Shown: piece after piece, positions 2,176-28,477 of the stretch
Layout: each line of letters starts with the position of its first letter
How positions within the stretch are numbered: position 1 is the stretch's first letter
NCBI GenBank assembly: GCA_963842525.1
Contig: CAWJGT010000001.1
Span: forward strand, 64,001-128,000
Length of the DNA stretch: 64,000 bases
Source: an uncultured Holophagales bacterium
GTDB lineage: Bacteria > Acidobacteriota > Thermoanaerobaculia > Multivoradales > UBA5704
Direction of reading: 5' to 3'
Program-made: the position numbers and the translations under genes
The notes under the pieces: generated by a model
Told to the model about the DNA's origin: nothing
Database searches by the model: none
What the model saw: only the letters and a program-made list of their open reading frames with translations

Positions 2176-3781
2176 ATGAACCGAACTTTCCGACGTACCC
2201 TTGTCCTTTGCTTCGCCGTCCCGGATTTTCGCCGCGACCGCGGAAGGGCTCTTCCAGAGCGAGGACAGCGGCGCGAGCTGGGACCTGAATCCCGGCGTCC
2301 CGGCCGGGCAGGCCGGCGTTGCCGCCGTGGCGTTTGACCCGGCGTCGCCCGGCACGATCTACGCCCTCCATTCCGGAGGTGTCCTGAAGAGTGTGGATGG
2401 AGGCGCAACGTGGACGCTGAAGAACAGCGGCCTGCCGGCGGAATTCGATCGCCTCTGGAAGCTTGCCGTCGACCCGCGGACACCCGGCACGCTCTACATC
2501 GCCCGGCACTCTCTGCCCGAGGAGGAGGCGACCGTCTTCCGGAGCACGGATGGCGCCGCGACCTGGTCCCCGACGGCCGAAGGGCTACATGGACATCAGC
2601 TCTTCGAGCTGGCAGTGCATCCCGCGACCTCGATCCTCTATGCGGCGACGATGGACGGTGTGTTCCAGAGCAGCAACGGCGGCCAAACCTGGACCGCTCC
2701 GGCTGCGGGAACACCGGTCCGCCCGGCGCGGGCGCTTGCCGTGCCTTCCGGACCGGCGGAGGTGGTCTACGCCGGGGTCGAAGTGGAAGGCGTCTTCAAG
2801 AGCACCGACCGCGGCGTCTCCTGGCGCACCGTGAACCGGGGGCTCCACGGCCTGGAGATGGATTCTCTTCTGATCGCTCGCACCAACCCATCGATCCTCT
2901 ATGCGGGCGTCTCAGGATGGGGGAGTCTGCGAAGCCAGAATGGAGGAGCGACGTGGACGCGGGTGGGCGCTGCGTCGATGAACGGAGCCCAGGTCGATCC
3001 CTGGGTGATCGCCATCGATCCGAGCGATGCGCGCACCGTGTACGCGATCTCCGCCGGCAATGTCATCTGGAAGAGCACGAATGGCGGCGTGAGCTGGCGT
3101 TCCATCGCCGAGGAGGACATGGCCTGCCTGCGTCTGGGGAGCTTCGTGATCGATCCGATGGAGCCCGACAACCTCTTCGTGGGCGGCTACGAGAGCCAGT
3201 GTCCGGAACGGCGCGATGTGTGTCTCGGCTTCCACAGCGCCGACGCGGGAGAGAGCTGGTCGTGCCTGAAGAAGGCGCCCGAGAGCGGCCTGCTCGCGCT
3301 CGCCATCGATCCCGTCCGGCCGTCGACGCTCTATTCTATCGGCCTCTACGGCGACGTCGTGAAGACCACGAACCGGGGAAAGAGCTGGACGACCTTGGGC
3401 AGTAAGCTGCCCACCCGGGGCGGCGGCAGCTCCCTGGCCGCCACGTCGTCCGCGCTCTACGTGTCCCTGCCGGACGGCATCCACAAGAGCCGCGACGGTG
3501 CCGCCACCTGGACCCCGGCCCGCACGGGGCTCGGTCATCTCACCTTTGGCCTCGCCGCGACGCCGGCCAATCCGTCCATCCTCTATGCCGTCTCGATGAC
3601 CTTCGATCCGTCCGGGACCACCGAGTATGGTGTCTACCGCACGACGGACGCCGCCGGCTCCTGGCACCGGCTGACGAAGGAAGGCCTGCCGCCGGGACCG
3701 CTCGGCGCGGCCATAGCCCATCCGCGGTTACCACGGCAGGTCTTCGTCCTGACGCCGGCCGGCATCTATCAACTGAAATGA
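2176..3781 (+). CDS. Secreted BNR/Asp-box repeat beta-propeller protein (VPS10/sialidase-like); 5' end disrupted
   Basis: Many SxDxGxTW Asp-boxes in ORF 2201-3781; signal-like MNRTFRRTLVLCFAV from ATG 2176 is in another frame and joins mid-repeat near 2220. Confidence 0.75.
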
Positions 3782-3843
3782 ATGTGCGCGCGGGAGCACT
3801 TCCTGTAGAGTCAAATAAAACAGCTTTGCAGGAGGTGTTCCTG

Positions 3844-4509
3844 ATGTCCCAGCGGTTCCGTGTTGTCGTGCGAAGCGCTCTTGCCGTCCTGATCCTTGCC
3901 GCCGGGCTTGTCGCCCCTCTCCAGGCTGCCACCGATCCGACCTATGCCGCGCTCCGTGCCGCGAAGCCGGACGGGCGGAAGATCCCGGTCCAGGGCCTGG
4001 TGCTGGAGCGCGACGCCTTCCGGTTCCAGCTCGACTCCGGAGCGCTCCACCAGCCCGTGCAGGTCGCCGGCTTCAACTACGGCAAGTTCGAGAAGCTCGA
4101 GCGCAAGGACGACGTCAGCGGCCTTCAGGTGGAGGTCTTCACCGGCACGGACAGCCCCTACCTGGGGCCCCAGGCGGGAAAGGTGACCGCGTCCCGGCTG
4201 GCGGACAGCGCCGCCGTGGACGGGCTCAACTCCGCCCGCGTCTTCACCGCCTACTTCGGCGCGCTCCCGCAGACCCATGTGGCGATCACCCAGCAGGCGC
4301 AGTGGTCGTTCGGCCAGTCGTGGCCGTCGCTGATCTTCCTGCCCTATGTGGCCTTCCTCGACGGGACCCAGCGCAATGCCCTGGGGCTCACCGGCGCGGC
4401 CGACTTCATCAACCAGGTGGGGTTCCACGAGTTCGCCCACGTGGCCGACGTGCCCTGGTCAATGCCATGGGGGAAGTCCTGGCACGTGACTGACCGCTTC
4501 CTGGTGTAG
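3844..4509 (+). pseudogene. Internally deleted paralog of the adjacent M1 peptidase
   Basis: Colinear segments matching 4544-7048 (DPTYAALRAAKPDGRKIPVQGL; PVQVAGFNYGKF...HEFAH; VAD; RALVNAMGEVLARD* ending 4493) with large intervening parts missing. Confidence 0.85.
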
Positions 4510-4543
4510 AGTAGAATTCGTTGTTCCTCAGGAGGTACTGAAG

Positions 4544-7048
4544 ATGTCCACCACCCGCCTGTCTCCGTGGCGTACGCTCGCGGCCCTGGCCCTCGCCGCT
4601 GCGCTCGCCACCCCTCTGCACGCCGCAAAAGATCCAACCTACACCGCGCTCCGCGCCGCCAAGCCGGACGGCCGGAAGATCCCTGTCCAAGGTTTGGAGC
4701 TCGAGCGCGACGCCTTCCGGTTCAAGTTCGACTCCGGGGCGTTCCACCTGCTGGCCCCGGTCGACGGGCGCACCGTCGGTGCGGTCTTCGTCGGCCAGGG
4801 GAGCTATCGGTTGAGCCCGGCGACCCCCAACGAACGGCGGCAGCTCGCCCTGTCGTCGGGTGGCGGCCAGGACTTCGAGACGCTCACGGACAACTTCGAG
4901 GATCTGCTGCTGCTGTTTGCCGACGACACGGCGGAGGAGATCCAGCTCCACGCTCCTGTCCAGACCGGAGCGCCCGATCCGAAGGCGCTCCAAGTCCAGG
5001 AGGCCTGGCTCAAGAGGCAGCGGAAGGACTTCAAGATCAACTTCCACGTGCGCATCCTCCAGGACCTCCTGAACAGCCCGGGCCTGCGGAGCGGCGTCTT
5101 CCTGGCCCTGGTCAACGGCAAGAAACACCCGCCCGCCCTGGCCGCCGTCGATCCCAACGGCGCCGGCGCCTTCGGGCCCCTGCTCGGCGGGGAGGACACC
5201 CTCTTCCTGGTCGCCGACCCGAACAAGGGAGGCCTGTGGTATCTCAGCGACCGCCAGGCTGAAGTGGACCGCAAACGGGCTCTGCCCGAAAAGCGGCTCG
5301 CCGATGCCCTCGACTATCGGGTCGAGACCAGCATCGAGAAGGACACCGACGTCGCCGGGACCACCACGGCCCGCTTCAAGGCCCTGGTGCCGAACCTGCG
5401 GGTCCTGCCCTTCTACCTGCTGCCGGAGCTTCGCATCGGGGAAGCGTCGTACGCGGTCGAAGCCGCGGGGTCCGAGCCCGCCTGGAAGCCCGCCGCCTTC
5501 ATCCAGGAAGACAAGGAAGAGGACGCTGGCGCAGCCCTTATCTTCCCGGAGCCCCTCGCCAAGGACTCCACCATTCTGCTCCGGCTCTCCTACAAGGGAG
5601 ACGAGGTGCTGGAGGACGCCGGCGACAAGAACTACTTCGTCCTCGCCCGGGCGGCCTGGTACCCCGACCTCGGGATCTTCAGCGATCTCGCCACCTTCGA
5701 GCTGATCTACCGCGTCCCCGCCGACAACGAGGTCATCTCGGTCGGCCGCAAGGTCGAGGAGCGGAGCGAGGGCAAACAGGTCGTCTCGGTCTGGAAGACC
5801 GATCATCCTGTCCAGATCGCGGGCTTCAACTACGGCAAGTTCAAGAAGCTGGAGAAGCAGGATGAGACGAGCGGCATCCTGGTCGAGGTGTATACCAACC
5901 CGGGTACGCCGGACGGCATCCGGGAGATCAATGACCTGATGAGCCGGTTTGGCACCGGCGATGAATACATCGAAGGGGCGGAGGAGTTCTCCGGCGCGGC
6001 GCCCGGGGCGAACCTCGGCACGATCAACACCTCCAAGCTCGCCGAAGCGACGCTCGCCGACGCCCTCAACTCCGCCCGCCTGTTCACCACCTATTTCGGC
6101 CCCCTGCCGCAGAAGCACGTGGCCATCACCCAGCAATCGCAGGCTTTTTTCGGCCAGTCCTGGCCGTCGCTCATCTACATGCCCTACATCTCCTTCCTCG
6201 ACGGCACCCAGCGCCAGCGGCTCGGCCTCACGCAGGCCAGGAACTTCGTCGAGGAGGTGGGCTTCCACGAATTCGCCCACCAGTGGTGGGGGCATCTCAT
6301 CGGCTGGAGCTCCTACCGCGATCAGTGGCTCTCGGAAGGCTTCGCCGAGTTCTCGTCGAGCCTTGCCGTGCAGCACACGAAAGGTTGGGGTGCCTACTTC
6401 AAGTTCTGGCGTGACCGCCGCAAGGAGATCCTCGACAAATACCCCGGCAACGCCATCCCCCACTATCAGGCGGGACCGATCACGCAGGGCTCGCGTCTGG
6501 TCACACCGCGCACCCCGTCGGCCTACCAGACCCTGATCTACGCCAAGGGCGGCTATGTCCTGCACATGCTGCGCATGCTGATGTACGATCCCGCCTCGAA
6601 AGACCCCGATGCCAGCTTCATCGCGATGATGAAAGACTTCACCTCCACCTATGGCAACAAGCATCCGTCGACCGCCGACTTCCAGAAGGTGGTCGAGCGC
6701 CACATGGTGCCGGCCATGAACGCCACCGGCGACGGCAAGATCGACTGGTTCTTCAACCAGTGGGTCTACGGTACCGAGATGCCGCGCTACGTGGCCGATC
6801 TCAAAGTCGAGAAGGCGTCGGGTGATGAGTACCGCATCTCGGGCAACATCAAGCAGGAGGGGGTCTCCAAGGACTTCCGCGCCCTCGTCCCCATCTACGT
6901 CGAGTTCAACAAGAACGAGGACGCCCGGATCGGCATGATTCCCATGGTGGGAGAGACCTCCGTGCCGGTCGATGTCAAGCTGAAGCTCCCCAAAAAGCCG
7001 AAGCGGGCACTGGTCAACGCCCACGGAGAAGTGCTGGCCCGCGACTGA
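4544..7048 (+). CDS. Secreted M1 family (gluzincin) metallopeptidase
   Basis: Signal peptide; HEFAH-x18-E motif (HEFAHQWWG...WLSEGFAEF); YAKGGYVLHMLR; WFFNQWVYG. Confidence 0.9.
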   Translation: MSTTRLSPWRTLAALALAAALATPLHAAKDPTYTALRAAKPDGRKIPVQGLELERDAFRFKFDSGAFHLLAPVDGRTVGAVFVGQGSYRLSPATPNERRQLALSSGGGQDFETLTDNFEDLLLLFADDTAEEIQLHAPVQTGAPDPKALQVQEAWLKRQRKDFKINFHVRILQDLLNSPGLRSGVFLALVNGKKHPPALAAVDPNGAGAFGPLLGGEDTLFLVADPNKGGLWYLSDRQAEVDRKRALPEKRLADALDYRVETSIEKDTDVAGTTTARFKALVPNLRVLPFYLLPELRIGEASYAVEAAGSEPAWKPAAFIQEDKEEDAGAALIFPEPLAKDSTILLRLSYKGDEVLEDAGDKNYFVLARAAWYPDLGIFSDLATFELIYRVPADNEVISVGRKVEERSEGKQVVSVWKTDHPVQIAGFNYGKFKKLEKQDETSGILVEVYTNPGTPDGIREINDLMSRFGTGDEYIEGAEEFSGAAPGANLGTINTSKLAEATLADALNSARLFTTYFGPLPQKHVAITQQSQAFFGQSWPSLIYMPYISFLDGTQRQRLGLTQARNFVEEVGFHEFAHQWWGHLIGWSSYRDQWLSEGFAEFSSSLAVQHTKGWGAYFKFWRDRRKEILDKYPGNAIPHYQAGPITQGSRLVTPRTPSAYQTLIYAKGGYVLHMLRMLMYDPASKDPDASFIAMMKDFTSTYGNKHPSTADFQKVVERHMVPAMNATGDGKIDWFFNQWVYGTEMPRYVADLKVEKASGDEYRISGNIKQEGVSKDFRALVPIYVEFNKNEDARIGMIPMVGETSVPVDVKLKLPKKPKRALVNAHGEVLARD

Positions 7049-10115: not shown

Positions 10116-12530
10116 ATGGGACTTCTTCGCGACCTCCGCCATGCCGTCCGGACGCTGACTGGCCATCCCGGCTACACCGCGGCTGCGGTGCTCACTCTGG
10201 CGCTGGGGATCGGGGCCAACACGGCGATCTTCAGCGTCGTCGATGCGGTGCTGCTGCGCCCGCTGCCCTTCCCGGAGCCGGACCGGCTGGTCGACGTGCT
10301 GGCCGTCCGGTCGGGACCGGAGACGGACCGGGTAGCGATCAGCCCGGCGGACTTCCTTGCCTGGCGTGCCCAGGGGCGGGTGTTCCAGGACCTCGGCGCC
10401 TATGTCCCCTTCGGCAGGCTCGACTGGACGGGCGGCCCGGAGCCGGTGCGGCTGTCGCGGCATCTGGTGTCCGAGGGGCTGCTCGCCGCGCTGGGGGTGC
10501 GGCCGGCGCACGGCCGGCTGTTCGCCGCGGAGGAATACCAGGAAGGCGCCCGCCGTGTGGCTTTGCTCAGCGACCGGCTGTGGCGGACCCGGCTCGGGGC
10601 TGATCCGGCAGCGGTCGGCCGCAGCCTGACCCTGGGCGGTGAGGTCTACGTGGTCGTCGGCGTCCTGCCGCGCGATTTCCGTATCCGCGGCGGCGAGCCG
10701 GACCTCCTGCTGCCGCTCGCCTTCGGGCCGGCGGCGGCGGCCGACCGTGAGTCCTCCTATCTCGGCGCGATCGGCCGGCTGCGTCCGGGGGTGTCGCTGG
10801 AGCAGGCACGCCTCGCGATGGGCAAGGACTTCAAGGACGGCAAGGACACCAACGATCAGACGATGACGGCCAGCCTGGTGCCTCTGCATGAGGTGATGGC
10901 TGGGCCGGCCCGGACAGCTCTCTTCGTGCTCTTTGGCGCCGTGGTCTTCGTGCTGCTGATTGCCTGCGCCAATGTGTCCGGCCTGCAGCTCGTGCGCGCT
11001 GCGTCGCGCCAGCCGGAGATCGTGCTGCGCTCGGCGCTCGGCGCGGACCGGAGACGCCTGGCGCGGCAGCTCCTGGTGGAGAGCGGCGTCCTGGCCGTCC
11101 TCGGCGGACTGGGCGGCGTGCTCCTTGCGGTCCTGGCTCTCCGGCTGTTGCCCGACGCGCGGGGCGTCTACCTTCCGCGGGACGTGGAGCTGGGCGTCGA
11201 CCTGCGGGTGCTCGGTTTCACCTTGATCCTGACGCTGCTCGCCGGGCTGGTCTCCGGGCTCGCACCGGCCCTGCGCGGCTCGCGGGCCGACCTGCGCGCG
11301 GCGTTCCAGGCCGGGGCCGCGGGGTCGCAGGAAGGCGGCACGTCGCGCCTCCAGGACAGCTTCGTCGTGGCCGAGATCGCCCTGGCCCTGGTGCTGCTCT
11401 GCGGCGCCGGCCTGATGCTCCGGTCCTTCGTGCGCCTGCTGGGCGAAGACCCCGGCTTCGAGCCGCGGCACGTGCTGACGATGGAGATCGAGGTGCCGGC
11501 GGCGCGGTACCCTGAGGCCGCCCAGGCCGCGGCGTTCTACGCCGGGCTGCTCGACCGCCTCGGGCACCTGCCCGGCGTGACGGCTGCCGGTGCCGCGAAG
11601 GAGCTGCCTCCCGACACGCCCTGGGGCTTCCGCCCCGTGCTGGAGGGCCGGGAAGAGCCGGAAGAACCCCAGGAGTCACTCGCGGGCTGGCAGCTCGTCA
11701 CGCCGGGCTATTTCGCAGCCATGGGCACCCCCGTGCTGCGCGGCCAGGCCTTCACCCTGAGCGACCGGGAAGGGAGCCGGCCGGTGACGGTGATCAACGA
11801 GAGTGCCGCCCGCCGCTTCTTCCCGGAGGTCGACCCTGTCGGCCGGCGGGTGCGGTTCAATGACATCTGGCACGAGGTGGCCGGTGTGGTGCGGGACCAG
11901 AAGACCCCGGGCGAAGCGGCTGGCGGCTCGCCGGTCTTCTACTTCGCCCATGCGCAGCTCCCGGTGCCGTCCGATTTCCTGCGTACCATGGCCATCGCGG
12001 TGCGCACGGAGAAGGACCCGCTCGCCCTCGCCGCCGCGGTGCGCCGCACGCTCTGGTCGCTCGACGCGGACCTGCCGGCGGCGGAGCTCCAGCCGCTGGA
12101 GCAGCGCCTCGTCGGCGGGCTCTTCTTCGCCCGCTCCCACTTCAACACCGTGCTCCTGGTGCTCTTCGCCGGCCTCGCTCTGCTCCTGGCGATGATCGGG
12201 ATCGCCGGCCTCCTCTCCTACCGGGTGCGCCGCCGCACCCGCGAGCTCGGCATCCGGATGGCGCTCGGTGCGCAGCGGGCCGACCTCCTGCGGCTGGTGA
12301 TGGCGCACGGCCTCGCCCTGACTCTCGTCGGGCTCGTCCTCGGCCTCGCCGGCGCCGTCTCCCTGACCCGCGTCCTGGCGAGCCTCCTCTATGGCCTGGG
12401 CGCTCTCGATCCGCTCACCCTCGGCGCGGTCGTCCTCCTCCTCGCCGCGTCCGCCTCCCTCGCCTGCTATCTCCCCGCCCGCCGCGCCAGCCGTCTCGAG
12501 CCCGTGACGGCGCTGCACGCCGACGTCTAG
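10116..12530 (+). CDS. ADOP-type duplicated ABC permease (MacB/FtsX)
   Basis: [59 protein letters not shown]. Confidence 0.92.
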
Positions 12531-12537
12531 CGCCTTC

Positions 12538-12803
12538 AGCGCCGTGGTGCGGGTCGTGGGCGCCGCGGTGGCCCGCCCCCATACCGTGGTATGGGCCGCT
12601 CACACCGGGGGATGAGCAGCTCATACCGCGGTATGGTATCGCCATACTGGGGTATAGTTGATCCAAACCGCGGTATGAAGATCACATACCCGGGTATGTC
12701 GAGATTGAACCTTGGAACGTTTGCTTCATACCGCGGTATGGTTGACTCGCACCACGGTATGGTGACAACATACCGTAGTTTGGCTGACTCATACCGAGGT
12801 GCG
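12538..12803. repeat. Tandem array with 21-bp period: 14-bp palindrome CATACCGCGGTATG plus 7-bp variable spacer, 13 units (several degenerate)
   Basis: Core starts at 12538, 12559, 12580, 12601, 12622, 12643, 12664, 12685, 12706, 12727, 12748, 12769, 12790; exact copies at 12622 and 12727; no indels. Confidence 0.92.
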
Positions 12804-12857
12804 TGTGGCTCGTACTTTCACCCGGACGAGCCGTTCTGGCCTTGAGGGGAGGAGAGA

Positions 12858-13253
12858 ATGCCGATTCCGACTGCATACCCCGACATCTTTCAGGACTGGA
12901 GCCTACTGCTCGCCGCGGTGCGGAAGAACCTGGAAGCCTTGCCGGGGATCGAGCCGCTGTTTCGCGAGATGGAGAGGGTCGCAGCCGAGGCCAAGTCGCT
13001 CAAGGGGGATCAGGACGAGCTCCAGGCGCGCCGGCAGAAGGCGACGCAGGACCTCAAGGAGAAGATCCGGGAAGGGCGCGATCTGGCGATCGTCCTGCGT
13101 GGGATCGTCCGCTCGCGGCTCGGACCCCGCAACGAGAGGCTGGTGCAGTTCGGGATCGCACCCATCCGGAAGCGCGGGCCCCGCTCGCGCGGGAAGGCCG
13201 CCGGGAACAGCGATGCCTCGCAGCCGGCGAACGAGGAGCCGCAGGCCGAGTGA
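12858..13253 (+). CDS. Hypothetical alpha-helical/coiled-coil protein (131 aa) with basic C-terminal tail
   Basis: Strong RBS GGGGAGGAG; helical pattern followed by LGPRNERLVQFGIAPIRKR. Confidence 0.8.
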   Translation: MPIPTAYPDIFQDWSLLLAAVRKNLEALPGIEPLFREMERVAAEAKSLKGDQDELQARRQKATQDLKEKIREGRDLAIVLRGIVRSRLGPRNERLVQFGIAPIRKRGPRSRGKAAGNSDASQPANEEPQAE

Positions 13254-13299: not shown

Positions 13300-14244
13300 C
13301 TAGCTTTGCGCCGGAGGTCGGGTCGTGCGAAGCGCCTGGTAGAGGCCTTCGAAGAGGGCGGTCCCGTGGCGCTCCAGCTCGGCGTCGGGCCAGCCGGCCG
13401 CGGCCCAGCCGCGCAGGACGGCGTCGATGCCTGCGGCCTCGGGGGAGGCCGGGCCGTCCCGCAGGTCGATCTCGTGGACGACGGCGGCGAGGGCCCGGAG
13501 GGCAGGCTCGTCGAGGCGGAAAGCCGCGAGCAGGGTCTCGAAGGTGCAAAGGTTGCCGCTGTGGCCGAACTCGGCCTCCCGCATGTCGAACGAGACCTCT
13601 CCCGCGGCGGGCTCGTCGGCGTAGCGGACCACGGCCTCCGTATCGATGAAGCGGCGGATCAGCCAGATCGAAGCCAGACGGTCGACGTGCGGGCGCGGCC
13701 GGGTCGCCCAGGTCCGGCCGCGGTAGCGCGCGAGGTCGGCCTGCGGCACCTCGCGAGGGGCGGCCTCCTCGCCGGCGATCGCCTCCGCGAGCCGGTTCAG
13801 GGCCGCGGCAGCTTCTGTGCCCTCCGGTGCCTGGAAGAAGTCGATGCGCGCCACCTCGGCCTGGCGGCGGCGCAGGCGTTCCAGCCGATCGCGGAATCCG
13901 GCGCGGTCGTCGTTCGCTGCGCGGGCGCTGCCGGCCGCTTCATCGGCCTCGGCGGCGATCTTCCGGTAGTCCTCGTCACGGGCGGCGCGGGAGAGCTCGA
14001 TCACCCGCGCCTCGGCCTTGTCCTCCAGCCGCTCGGCATGGAGCACCAGCGCCTCGCCGCCCCCGTCGCGGATCTCCTGCGCCAGCCAGTCGAAGGCCTC
14101 CCTGCTCTCGGCGCCGTCCGGCAGCAGGTAGAGCGAGCCGGTGGGCGAGACTGCTCCGAGCTGGCGCAGCCGCCGCCACACCGCCACGCGCTTGCTGGAC
14201 GAGGCGGGGGAGGGGAGGGAGTAGGCGAGGCCGACCCAGCGCAT
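13300..14244 (-). CDS. chrB: Chromate resistance protein ChrB-like
   Basis: RVAVWRRLRQLGA, WATRPRPHVDRLASIWLIRRFID, FDMREAEFGHSGNLCTFE. Confidence 0.88.
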   Translation of the reverse strand: MRWVGLAYSLPSPASSSKRVAVWRRLRQLGAVSPTGSLYLLPDGAESREAFDWLAQEIRDGGGEALVLHAERLEDKAEARVIELSRAARDEDYRKIAAEADEAAGSARAANDDRAGFRDRLERLRRRQAEVARIDFFQAPEGTEAAAALNRLAEAIAGEEAAPREVPQADLARYRGRTWATRPRPHVDRLASIWLIRRFIDTEAVVRYADEPAAGEVSFDMREAEFGHSGNLCTFETLLAAFRLDEPALRALAAVVHEIDLRDGPASPEAAGIDAVLRGWAAAGWPDAELERHGTALFEGLYQALRTTRPPAQS

Positions 14245-15259: not shown

Positions 15260-16063
15260 TGTCGGTCTCCTGTCGATCGGTCAGGGTTGAAGGGCGTGGG
15301 CCGCGACGACCTCGAAGGCTCCCCAAGTCCAGGGAGCCCTGTGCTTCTCTTCGCGGCCTTCCAGGAACGAGAGATGCGCTTCCCGGAGGGCGCCGACCGG
15401 ATCCGGCCGCGCGAGGAGGCTTTTGTAGAAGACCGCGAAGAAGCGGTCCGCCGTGCGGTCGTCGACGTTCCAGAGGCTGGCGACGACCTGGGGCACGCCC
15501 ACGGCGAGGAAGGCCCGGGCCAGGCTCGTGCCGCCTTCGTCTGCCGCAGGCACGGCGTCCGCGGTGCCGCAGGCGGAGAGCACGACCAGGCGCGTGCCGG
15601 TGAGGTCCAGCCGGTAGATCTCCCAGGCGGAGAGAGCCCGGAATCTCCGGCGCCCGACGGGGCGAGCACGAGCTGGGAGAGGAGAGGGTCCCTGGGATCG
15701 GTGACGGCATGGCCGGCGAAATGGACCATCCCGGAGCGCGGGGCCAGATCCAGGAACGAAGCCTTGGTCGCCTCGGCGCCGCGTACCAGGACCGAGCCGG
15801 GAAGGAGCCGCGCGATCCGGGCCGATTCCTTTTCGGTTCCGCGCAGGGACTCCAGACCCGGCCAGAGATTGACGTTGAACGCCGGATTGCCGATGACGAG
15901 GGCGGCAGGCGGGGGTAGCCCGGCTGGGCTGTCCCGGGCCGGGGAGCGACATACAGGGTCGCGCTCGGCGCGCAGGCAATCCGGTAGTCCTGGATGAGGT
16001 AGCGGCTCGAGCGCGAGTCCCAGAGGGCGGCGAAGGGGACGCCGTGCAGGGCCTTGTCCGGAA

Positions 16064-17720
16064 GTATCTGTTTACCGTCAGCGGCACTTTTGGGGAAGGT
16101 TTTCCCTGGACACACGTCCGCGCTGGCCAGGCGACCTGACGAGGGCGAGCGGCTACCGACCTGGAGCCACGGATAACTCGTGGCGAGAACTGTTACGGTG
16201 GCTGTGACGCAGGAAGTATTGCCTCAAGCTTCGGTAGCTGGGGGCTGCGCAGAAGCTGGGGCAAGATCTCGAGTGTCCCGACTTGGTGTTGCTGAAATGT
16301 GCGCAGGGCACTCATCAAGACCGCTTGCGCCTGGGACCCCTCGGCCGTCCGATTTCCCCCAGATGTCTTGCGGTTGATGACCGCCGGGCGAATCCCTTGT
16401 TCGGCCGGCCAATTGGTCGCCTCCACATCCGTGCGTTCCAGGAAGACAAACAGCTGCTCCTGGTGACGTATCAAATGCTGAGCCAGACGCTGGTTGTCGG
16501 GGTTCGTGAACTGCCCCGACAGACGCCTTTCCATCTGGAGCTCCAAGTTCTGCTTGACCTTCTCCAGCGCCTCGCCGCTGAGCTTGCCCGCGTCCCGCTG
16601 ATCTCGCGCCTCCAAGGCGGCCTGCAGGATCTCTTTCACCGCCCGAGGAAAGCGCACCGCACCCCCTGTCGCCTTCTCCAGCAGCTCCTCGCAACGGCGC
16701 AACAGATGCGCCAGACAGGTCTGATGAGTCGCTTCTTCAAATTTCTGATAGGGAGCCCAACCATCAGCCACCAGCACGCCGACAAAGCCCTCCCCCAGGA
16801 CCTCAGAGGCCTCGGCATAGCCACGACCCGGCTGGATGCTGTAGACCGTCTCGCTGCGATTGGTGAACACCCACAACCACACGCTATAGCCCCCCTCCCG
16901 CCAGCCCGTCTCGTCCGGGTACACCACAGGAGAGGCTCCGGATCTTCGCCTTCAGCTCCTCGTACAAGGGCTCCAGCTTCTTACTCATGCGAAGCAGCGC
17001 GCGGCACAGGGCCGAGCGCGACACAGACAGTCCAGCCACTCCTTCAGCAACGCGGCGATCTTGCCGTAGCTCAAGCCTCCGACCTTGTTGAGCCAGGCGG
17101 CGAGCCCCAACACGTTTGGACCGAGTTGCACGTTGCCGACCCGGAACGCCTGGGAAGTCTGGCGCGGGTGACGCCCCACAGCTTCCCGGCCACATGCCGA
17201 GCACTTCCCATAATGGAGGATGAACTCCGTCGTCACCGGCCGAATCGGCGGCAGATCGGTCTGATACTGGCGAGCTTCGCCCTGCGGAATGACCTGACCC
17301 CCACAGTGCTCACAATACAGCGGGCACTCCACCACGATGGTTTCGTCGACGTGATCGGGCACAGCTCGAGTCGCTTGCTGACCATATTGATCCCCGGCTT
17401 TGCGCCCTGGAGACTTGGGATCCTCGCTCGGATCTCCCTTCGAGAAGGGGGCAGCCTGGCGTTTGCCCCGGCGCCGTAGCTCCTCGACAAGTTTCTCCAG
17501 ATCGACGATTCGGCGCTTCAGGTGCGCAATCTGGCGCTCCTGCTCCTCCACCCGCTGGCGAAGCTCACCGTTGTCTTGGCGAAGCTCAGAGTTCTCTTGA
17601 AGGAGTTCCTCGTAAGTCGGCATGCCTGAAAGACATTAGACCATGCCGAGAAGAGAACTTCAAGCCCTTGCGGACGTGCCACCGCTCGGGGAAGGCGGCA
17701 CTAGGGCGGTAAACAGATAC
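16064..17720 (-). mobile_element. IS66-family insertion sequence with single transposase gene
   Basis: 14-bp terminal inverted repeats GTATCTGTTTACCG / CGGTAAACAGATAC; 8-bp target duplication GTCCGGAA at 16056-16063 and 17721-17728. Confidence 0.93.
16193..17623 (-). CDS. IS66-family transposase (two frameshifts)
   Basis: Coiled-coil N-terminus, CxxC zinc motifs, DETGWR, ADGWAPY, HQTCLAHLLR, TNWPAEQGIRPAVINRK. Confidence 0.88.
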
Positions 17721-25420: not shown

Positions 25421-25666
25421 CTACCCCCAGCGGTTCCGGAAGGGCTTCGCTGTGCTCCAACCGATCGGCGAGCACGCGAAGGGTCAGGGCCTGCGCCGCG
25501 GAGAGGGCGGCTTCCCGCGTCGGGCCGTAGACCATGACCTCAGGGCCTGCGCCGCGGAGAGGGCGGCTTCCCGCGTCGGGCCGTAGACCATGACCCCGGG
25601 GAGATCGGTGACGTCCGCGATCCAGCGACCATCGACTTCTCGTTCCAGCTCGACCGTCAGACGCAT
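25421..25666 (-). pseudogene. HicB-like antitoxin disrupted by a 56-bp tandem duplication
   Basis: EREVDGRWIADVTDLPGVMVYGPTREAA; identical units 25484-25539 and 25540-25595; 3' end runs into the REP/IS. Confidence 0.75.
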
Positions 25667-27282: not shown

Positions 27283-28477
27283 ATGAATAGAGTGCTGTGC
27301 CTCCTTCTCCTCGCCATCGTTTTCGTGCCGGCCGTCGGCTGCGACAAGGTCAACCCGACCGCCCCGAACGGGACCATCCTCACGATGAGCGCCAACCCGG
27401 CGCAGATCTCCTTGAACGGTACATCGACCATCACGGTGATCGGCCGCAAGCCGAACGGCAGCCCCCTGAACCGGGGGACCGAGGTCCGGCTCGACGACGA
27501 CACTCGGCAGCATCGAGCCCTTCGTGCAGGTCGATGACGACGGCGTGGCGACCGCGACCCTGCGGGGCGACGGCCGGCAGGGGGTCGCGACGATCACGGC
27601 CGCTACGTCCTCGGCCGGCGGCACCACGCCGCCCGCGACTCCGACTCCTCCCCCCGGCGGCACGACCCCCACTCCCCCGACCGGCGGCAGCAGCAGCGGC
27701 ACCTCCAGCGTCACCTTGGGCGTGGAGATCGGCGGGGCGGCGAAGACGATCGTCTTACAGGCGACTCCGACCAATCTTCCCTCGACGGGGGGCAACGTCA
27801 GCCTGGTCGCCCTTGTGCGGGACTCCCGGGGACAACCGCTGGTCAACGCGCGTGTGAATTTCCTCACCGAGCTCGGGAGGCTCAGCTCGGGAGGTGCGCT
27901 GCGGAATACGAATGCGAACGGCCAGGCGACAGATACCCTCATCGTCAGCGAAAGCGACATCGACCTCACGGAGAGCACCGGCTTCAATGTGACGGCTCAG
28001 ACCGCGGCAAGCGACGGGGTCCTGGTCAGCGACGATTTTCACATCACGGTCCAGAGCGGCAAGCCACAGGCGGATTTCCGGGTGGAGGGGACCGGGCGCA
28101 ACGTGAAGTTCGTCAGCACCTCGACGGGTGAAGAGCCGCTGACCTTCGACTGGGACTTTGGAGATGACACGGCGCACTCGACGGAGCGAAACCCCAGCCA
28201 TCTGTATGCCACGGCCTCAACCTACACTGTGGTTCTGGAAGTGACGAACGCTCGCGGCGGCGACGTGGTGACCAAGCGGGTCGAGGTCTCGGCCAGCGGA
28301 GCTTCCCAAGATCGTCCCATGACCTGGAGCAGGTGGACCAGGAGCGGCCCTTGGGCCGCTCCTGCCGTCTCTGGCCTGTGGAGCCGGGCCCCCTGCTATA
28401 ATGCGGCCACTTTGCCGGCCGACCTCGATGCCTTCCGCCCCGTCCCCTGCCACCACCATGCCCAAGGTGTCTCATGA
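27283..28477 (+). CDS. Lipoprotein with Ig-like (Big_1) and PKD domains (frameshift near 27495; true 3' end uncertain)
   Basis: Lipobox-like AVGC, Thr/Pro linker, TNANGQA, FDWDFGD...NPSHLY...YTVVLEVTN. Confidence 0.75.

Follow-up and report, generated by a model that had tools for sequence, protein, structure and literature searches.

A 21-bp-phased palindrome array upstream of a small basic protein gene in a Holophagales bacterium, and arrays with other cores beside genes of the same family

In a stretch of 64,000 nucleotides from an uncultured Holophagales bacterium (this whole stretch is called the window below), we identified a row of palindromes in strict helical phase, in which selection acts on the cores and not on the spacers, directly upstream of a real gene for a 131-aa basic protein. 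Rows of the same build with different cores recur directly upstream of genes of the same family in other lineages. Our best explanation is that the row is a helically phased binding array on double-stranded DNA, probably read by the adjacent protein; it would then be similar to the centromere or operator array of a plasmid, except that it lies on the chromosome and lacks a motor gene. We give this reading a probability of roughly 0.4. The features of the window and of the related loci are summarized in Table 1.

Table 1. Arrays, genes and junction features in the window and in the related loci.
Feature	Locus	Position	Strand	Description
Palindrome array, 13 units	Window	12538–12810	.	21-bp register; 14-bp dyad core CATACCGCGGTATG (CATACC-N2-GGTATG) plus 7-bp variable spacer; directly upstream of the gene
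Well-kept block, 11 units	Window	12580–12803	.	Match to CATACCGCGGTATG; 10 of 11 units with ≤ 3 mismatches
Short inverted repeat	Window	12806–12831	+	GGCTCGT ... ACGAGCC between array and gene; no T-run
Shine-Dalgarno-like purine-rich run	Window	12846–12856	+	GGAGG at 12848–12852, five bases 5′ of the ATG; read from the sequence
Gene for 131-aa basic protein	Window	12858–13253	+	Third-codon-position GC 0.88; family without annotation
MacB_PCD/FtsX permease	Window	10116–12530		Upstream neighbor of the array
ChrB	Window	13300–14244	−	Convergent with the 131-aa gene
Array, 23 units, probably 25	L008	From 5091 (23 units, exact register); probably from 5049 (25 units)		Core CAGCC-N4-GGCTG; ends ~120 bp before the ATG
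Arrays, 10 units each	L001, L007			Core CGCC-N4-8-GGCG; directly upstream of the gene
Array, 12 units	L002	12046–12296		CGCCTCGCGAGGCG plus 7 bp; between the ends of convergent genes, 5.7 kb downstream of the family gene
Array, 8 units	L003	1–169		TGCCCGCGGGCA plus 9 bp; 5.8 kb upstream of the family gene, beside the 3′ end of another gene

Structure of the array and its surroundings in the window

Thirteen successive units follow one another in exact register with zero indels, and their period of 21 bp corresponds to two turns of B-DNA. Ten of the units (at 12580, 12601, 12622, 12643, 12664, 12685, 12727, 12748, 12769, and 12790) matched CATACCGCGGTATG with 0–3 mismatches. The other three (at 12538, 12559, and 12706) are degenerate, with 7 mismatches each, but retain the central CC..GG. 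The mean pairwise identity among the units was 0.72 for the cores and 0.30 for the spacers, the latter being a saturated value. Together with the indel-free register, this difference is evidence that both the core and the spacing are under selection. When the whole window was scanned, CATACCGCGGTATG occurred 12 times at ≤ 3 mismatches, as compared with 1.32 ± 1.16 times in shuffled sequences, and none of the 100 shuffles reached 12. Outside the array, the only matches were two with 3 mismatches, at 27998 and 52010, so that no copy with ≤ 2 mismatches was present beyond the array within the 64-kb window. The strongest period-21 autocorrelation peak of the 64 kb was found at 12467–12865 (0.58), and two weaker period-21 peaks that we checked showed no dyad symmetry. 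The GC content was 0.49–0.53 inside the array and 0.7–0.8 (about 0.73) in its flanks. These results bear out the original prediction as regards the 13 units in exact register, the palindromic core with differing spacers, the higher AT content of the array, and its placement with the gene between a permease and chrB. The distance from the last unit to the ATG, predicted to be about 55 bp, was measured as 47 bp.

The short inverted repeat between the array and the gene had a fold energy no better than that of shuffles (z = 0.43), and a scan of the region for terminator-like sites gave 0. A strict promoter scan of the region also gave 0 sites; in a relaxed scan within and after the array, the best candidates had only 8 of 12 matches and lay inside the array, and none was convincing. 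When both sides of the 0.7-kb unit were searched for terminal repeats or target-site duplications, the only result was one 20-nt direct repeat (12539–12558 and 13308–13327, 80% identical), which brackets the array and the gene and is estimated to be within chance at the given GC content. Elsewhere in the window, a partial CHAT-domain ORF adjoins an IS66-family transposase that is split into two ORFs, 16193–16927 and 16985–17623 (the whole at 15281–17623), and a 56-bp unit is present in perfect tandem duplication at 25484–25595 (2.0 copies, 100% match).

Coding potential of the array

As originally predicted, the plus-strand frame 12591–12845 is open, and it spans 84 codons and stops 12 nt 5′ of the ATG of the gene. 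One of the proposals attached to this frame was that the array encodes a heptad-repeat peptide (xYRGMxx). The GC content at the third codon position was 0.48–0.57 in the three plus-strand frames of the array vs. 0.88–0.90 in the neighboring real genes, and the minus strand of the array was open as well, as any palindrome array allows. Furthermore, the array of the related locus L008 was closed in all six frames, and a Pfam search with the peptide of the array frame gave no match. Because the third-position GC excess was lacking in every frame of the array, the opposite strand was open, and the L008 array was closed, we rejected the peptide reading, which we regard as extremely improbable despite the length of the open frame and its end close to the gene.

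The adjacent protein and its family

The 131-aa protein had been described as helical with a basic tail. The basic character was confirmed, with the correction that the protein is basic overall (pI 9.9); for the helical character, only weak, sub-cut-off Pfam matches of the coiled-coil type, to coiled-coil hairpin families, can be cited. The conserved part of the family comprises about 110 residues and has at its C-terminal end the Arg/Lys-rich motif GPRNExLVQFGIAPxRKR, which is followed by a variable tail in which proline and basic residues are abundant. When 1.84 billion cluster representatives were searched without a profile, 718 relatives were detected at E ≤ 1e-3 and 180 at E ≤ 1e-10, and a word-indexed search detected 245 relatives of near-equal length at E ≤ 1e-8. 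The family is large and mostly found in Acidobacteriota, and some genomes carry several paralogues. Among the 120 matches listed, the named proteins were hypothetical apart from two with other automatic names, and the named organisms were Thermoanaerobaculia or Acidobacteria MAGs; many of the matches listed were on contigs of < 3 kb, as judged by eye.

Searches of Pfam, NCBIfam, PHROGs, and PADLOC with the protein and 18–60 homologues gave nothing above threshold, the sub-cut-off matches being scattered and of the coiled-coil type, and a PDB profile search with the 131-aa protein gave no meaningful match. No known DNA-binding domain, including ribbon-helix-helix and helix-turn-helix domains, was detectable by sequence or profile searches. 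The Atlas model of the homologue P0206 had a pLDDT of 0.75, and its feature and structure neighbors were all unnamed clusters of Acidobacteriota or Myxococcota. A search of the open-access literature returned no description of such arrays or of the protein family.

Arrays directly upstream of other members of the family

Related loci were collected from genome contigs with the single peptide pattern GPRNE[RGK]LV[QH], which captures part of the family only, and 8 loci were obtained. Three of these (L001, L005, and L007) represent one near-identical locus, with neighbors that are 90–97% identical, and were counted as one lineage. The 7 independent lineages are thus the window, L001/L005/L007, L008, L002, L003, L004, and L006. 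In three of the seven, a 21-bp dyad array immediately precedes the family gene; its position is always 5′, and its core differs from lineage to lineage. The contig of L005 begins 193 bp upstream of the gene, which is the expected place of the array. In L002, L003, L004, and L006, no array was present directly upstream of the gene. The expectation that homologues carry periodic arrays therefore held for the first three lineages and failed for the other four, and the expectation that the core changes with the protein agrees with what was seen in the three array-bearing lineages. In the tree, the array-bearing members fall into three separate clades, and L008 is the sister of the array-less L004; therefore, the association between the arrays and the family gene is real but patchy. 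Additionally, when the homologue P0003 (74% identical) was read through upstream of its start, HTTV...RTSA appeared seven residues apart, which is consistent with the P0003 gene also being preceded by putative CATACC-type units. No seven-residue period was found in the N-terminal read-throughs of homologues other than P0003.

The L001-type lineage allowed orthologous arrays to be compared. The arrays of L001 and L007 were identical at 141 of 180 positions (78%), and the adjoining flank at 69 of 70. Within the arrays, 62 of the 68 CGCC/GGCG positions were identical vs. 79 of the 112 other positions, and the L007 array contains a 1-bp indel. The array might be a decaying, functionless minisatellite that arose by slippage, its palindromy being left over from the founding unit. 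Such an origin would agree with this rapid change beside a nearly constant flank, with the greater degeneracy of the outermost units in the window, and with the L003 array, whose units share 96% identity, as a recent expansion would leave them. However, neutral decay would make no difference between cores and spacers and would tolerate indels, and the window array shows well-kept cores, saturated spacers, and an unbroken register over 13 units. Moreover, the half-site positions were kept between L001 and L007, and separate lineages have the same architecture, with unrelated cores, next to members of this gene family. We consider a minisatellite very improbable.

Between the array and the gene, a promoter-like −35/−10 pair is conserved in L001, L005, and L007 (TTGACA-17-TACACT in L001). 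This predicted promoter follows the array, and the array of the L001-type loci would therefore lie upstream of the promoter, outside the transcript started there. Several further observations were made at these loci. In L001 (~1376–1443) and L005 (1–80), but not in L007, the array and the promoter-like site are separated by a long inverted repeat with a stem of ~27 bp, which has the appearance of a palindromic insertion. L001, L005, and L007 are labeled as Acidobacteria gp7, Thermoanaerobaculia, and Myxococcales MAGs despite protein identities of 90–97% for the family gene and its neighbors, and this mismatch reflects either a binning error or a recent transfer. In L001 from 1543, and likewise in L005 and L007, the family ORF is free of stops for > 400 codons and continues antisense into a large convergent gene. 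This accounts for the longer or fused forms of the family, which comprise only three proteins (P0016, P0156, and P0157), all of them apparent read-throughs of the L001-type locus. In L008, about 1.3 kb upstream of the array (3710–5050) has a low coding signal, and a minus-strand ORF at 3783–4439 gave a sub-threshold match to HTH_17, an excisionase-type helix-turn-helix.

Arrays away from the family gene

Arrays of the same build were also found away from the family gene in L002 and L003, and these two were the only ones in the ~132 kb examined. With only two stray arrays in ~132 kb, we estimate that chance is unlikely to have placed the arrays next to family genes. Every array has a core that is restricted to it: the cores of L002 and L003 had no outside copy with ≤ 2 mismatches in their loci, and that of L008 had one 2-mismatch match outside the array (4284), which is no more than chance. 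Because the L002 and L003 arrays are far from the gene start, an array does not have to sit on a promoter or act as the operator of a neighboring gene, and 21-bp dyad arrays thus form a separate class of elements in these genomes.

These stray arrays also bear on the possibility, which we place on the unlikely side, that the arrays are autonomous intergenic DNA elements. They would then be served by another reader or act through DNA structure as an insulator, a roadblock, or a topological or chromosome-organization site, and the protein gene would merely tend to adjoin them, for example because both occur in variable regions. This agrees with the 14 + 7 or 12 + 9 arrays that lie away from the start of a family gene, between convergent genes in L002 and after a 3′ end in L003, with the start of the window array only 8 bp past the stop codon of the permease, and with the four lineages in which the gene has no adjacent array. 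Signs of flux near the window array (IS66 and the truncated CHAT gene) and near that of L008 (the low-coding stretch and the HTH_17-like gene) point in the same direction. However, 5′ adjacency in three of the seven lineages far exceeds the prediction from two stray arrays per ~132 kb, and both stray arrays are still < 6 kb from a family gene. Private cores, furthermore, mean that each array needs a reader of its own, and the sole gene without an assigned function beside the array in the window is the 131-aa gene.

Three of the array-less loci have ORFs of ~87–197 aa without a Pfam match directly upstream of the family gene, namely, L002 (5680–5973), L004 (2911–3811), and L006 (905–1168). The upstream ORFs of L004, present in two copies, and of L006 are related and have a repeated LK(A/S)ERVQ(E/Q) motif in common, and a BLAST comparison of the L002 ORF with them gave no match. 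A second paralogue of the family is located downstream in L002 and L006.

Action as DNA or as RNA

The non-Watson–Crick pairs of the window array consisted of 6 G·T and 5 A·C, i.e., there was no strand bias, and covariation within the array was marginal (0.28 vs. 0.206; 25 of 500 shuffles were as high). Both results fit conserved half-sites and not a compensated hairpin. In the L008 array, CAGCC-N4-GGCTG alternates with CAGCC-N4-AGCCG, so that in double-stranded form about half of the units lack palindromic symmetry. Standard pairs occupied 92.2% of the cells on the strand antisense to the gene vs. 71.3% on the sense strand, and 30 of the 39 non-Watson–Crick cells were G·U on the antisense strand. 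No covariation beyond column composition was detected in L008 (473 of 500 shuffles reached the value), and because AGCC and GGCT differ by transitions only, the pattern can equally be read as direct half-site repeats. A hairpin of a single core is weak (−3.1 kcal/mol). The whole region folded better than shuffles on both strands (z ~ −6.6), which is expected of any palindrome array. In Rfam searches, the region (E-value threshold) and 5 of the 8 loci (gathering threshold) yielded nothing beyond sub-threshold noise.

The original prediction had also offered a repeat-spacer RNA. This reading is weak, and we think it decidedly unlikely that the array acts as RNA. It draws on the pairing asymmetry of L008, on the folding of the region, and on a layout that corresponds to the type III plan of tandem repeats, a short inverted repeat, and a ribosome-binding site with its gene, as outlined in PMC3401426. 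On the other hand, the favored strand of L008 is antisense to the gene, the window array has no strand bias, covariation is absent or marginal, the L008 pattern has the alternative explanation given above, and the core hairpin is weak. The inverted repeat after the window array lacks a T-run, its fold does not surpass that of shuffles, and in the L001-type loci the predicted promoter comes after the array.

Type III toxin–antitoxin systems (ToxIN, CptIN, and TenpIN) have the order of their parts in common with the window, as described in the same paper: repeats, a short inverted repeat, and a small-protein gene, the repeat array being on the 5′ side of the gene as are the 13 units here. A type III locus has a palindromic terminator between its repeats and its gene; between the array and the gene of the window lies the inverted repeat at 12806–12831, without a T-run. 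The ToxI repeats are given there as 36 nt in 5.5 copies, and the aligned ToxI sequences as pseudoknot-forming units of 31–46 nt (PMC3401426). In contrast, the units of the present arrays are 21 nt long with free spacers, which are 30% alike in the window, and are present in 13–25 copies. The type III toxin is a Kid/MazF-like endoribonuclease, and the Pfam and PADLOC libraries contain ToxN-type models. Neither the 131-aa protein nor its 18–60 homologues matched ToxN, CptN, or TenpN, or any other toxin or defense model, in these libraries. Membership in the type III systems was ruled out by the protein family and the unit length.

Comparison with known repeat systems

Plasmid centromeres (parC/ParR, the omega heptad arrays, pCXC100 ParB, and F sopC/SopB) resemble the present locus in that phased repeats lie beside, and usually upstream of, the gene for a small binder (a putative one in the window), and these binders are small and hard to recognize by sequence. 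Their arrays often overlap the promoter, serve autoregulation, and are bound cooperatively, as is proposed for the window array. According to the respective papers, sopC consists of 12 repeats of 43 bp, in each of which one dimer binds a 16-bp inverted repeat (PMC2910045), parC consists of tandem repeats upstream of its own operon, and the omega sites comprise 7–10 iterons (PMC5016525). The window array differs from these centromeres in its 21-bp period with free 7-bp spacers, in that a ribbon-helix-helix or helix-turn-helix domain is undetectable, and in the paralogues present in some genomes. As in partition systems, a phased array stands beside a small-protein gene, the product of which is a putative binder. 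However, partition systems have a ParA, ParM, or TubZ partner, and no such gene is adjacent in the window, where a permease and ChrB flank the locus; the neighbor ORFs scanned in the 8 loci contained no NTPase domain. Partition systems are also borne on plasmids or phages, whereas the window locus is chromosomal (contig of 808,628 bp), with no plasmid or phage homologue of the protein by tblastn and no plasmid match of the array by blastn. Membership in the partition systems was ruled out because there is no NTPase and no plasmid.

Iteron origins typically have a spacing of about two helical turns, and the likeness to the window array lies in repeats of ~20 bp at this spacing in a relatively AT-rich stretch. 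Iterons are direct repeats, whereas the window units are dyads in a chromosomal setting; there is no initiator-sized Rep gene, the 131-aa protein has no Rep domain, and the whole window contains 0 DnaA boxes (≤ 1 mismatch). Without a Rep gene or a DnaA box, the locus was excluded from the iteron origins. REP/BIME elements are often found directly after the 3′ end of a gene. They are described in PMC3733652 as short palindromes in intergenic rows. REPs are dispersed as many copies of one sequence, whereas the present cores are each restricted to a single array; membership was ruled out since the core is not dispersed within 64 kb of the genome or within the L002, L003, and L008 loci. The paired ARG boxes of ArgR are palindromes spaced 21 bp from center to center, and the bound subunits are on one face of the helix. 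These operators have two boxes and not 13–25, and the repressor family is unrelated to the 131-aa protein. Finally, CRISPRs have repeats of > 20 bp, unique spacers of similar or greater length, and cas genes; with a core of 14 bp and spacers of 7 bp, the array was rightly predicted on its anatomy not to be a CRISPR.

Proposed function and its significance

In the mechanism that we propose, dyad-symmetric sites at exactly two helical turns (21 bp) would all be on the same face of the helix, and a sequence-specific, probably dimeric protein would load on them cooperatively and assemble into a single extended nucleoprotein complex. The most probable candidate for this protein is the small basic protein encoded directly downstream. 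The promoter region of its gene would, in the window, be covered by the complex as well, which may thereby regulate the gene. We infer that the array acts at the level of DNA, that the adjacent protein is its binder, that this protein binds as a dimer, and that it is autoregulated.

Several results agree with a phased binding array, which had been among the original predictions and which fits best with the exact spacing, the saturated spacers, and the lack of strand bias in the window. The protein is basic, its conserved C-terminal motif is rich in Arg and Lys, and the half-sites of L001 and L007 were kept as other array positions drifted. Other results count against it: a known DNA-binding domain is not detectable in the protein, four of the seven lineages have no adjacent array, and one of these, L004, is a close relative of the array-bearing L008. 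In addition, about half of the L008 units are non-palindromic on double-stranded DNA, the L007 array has its indel, arrays of the same build lie 5.7–5.8 kb from the gene in L002 and L003, and no convincing promoter was found in the window. A wider version of the binding reading, which we consider unlikely, is that these loci represent a new bacterial chromatin element. Family members would polymerize on private 21-bp-phased dyad arrays of 10–25 sites into a defined nucleoprotein filament on the chromosome, core and specificity would co-diversify as for plasmid centromeres and their binders, and the motor-less filament would serve as an address tag, an insulator, or an anchor instead of in plasmid partition.

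If the protein reads its own array, the two would constitute a compact natural system in which a binding protein is matched to a repeated address and the specificity changes from locus to locus. Such orthogonal protein–DNA pairs could be used for testing how phasing drives cooperative assembly. The locus would then be a chromosomal, motor-less relative of plasmid centromere and operator arrays, and the binding role would be the first function for a large orphan family (718 cluster representatives) in a poorly studied soil phylum. Similar rows with different palindromes in other soil bacteria point to a putative module, previously undescribed, of a protein and its binding array.
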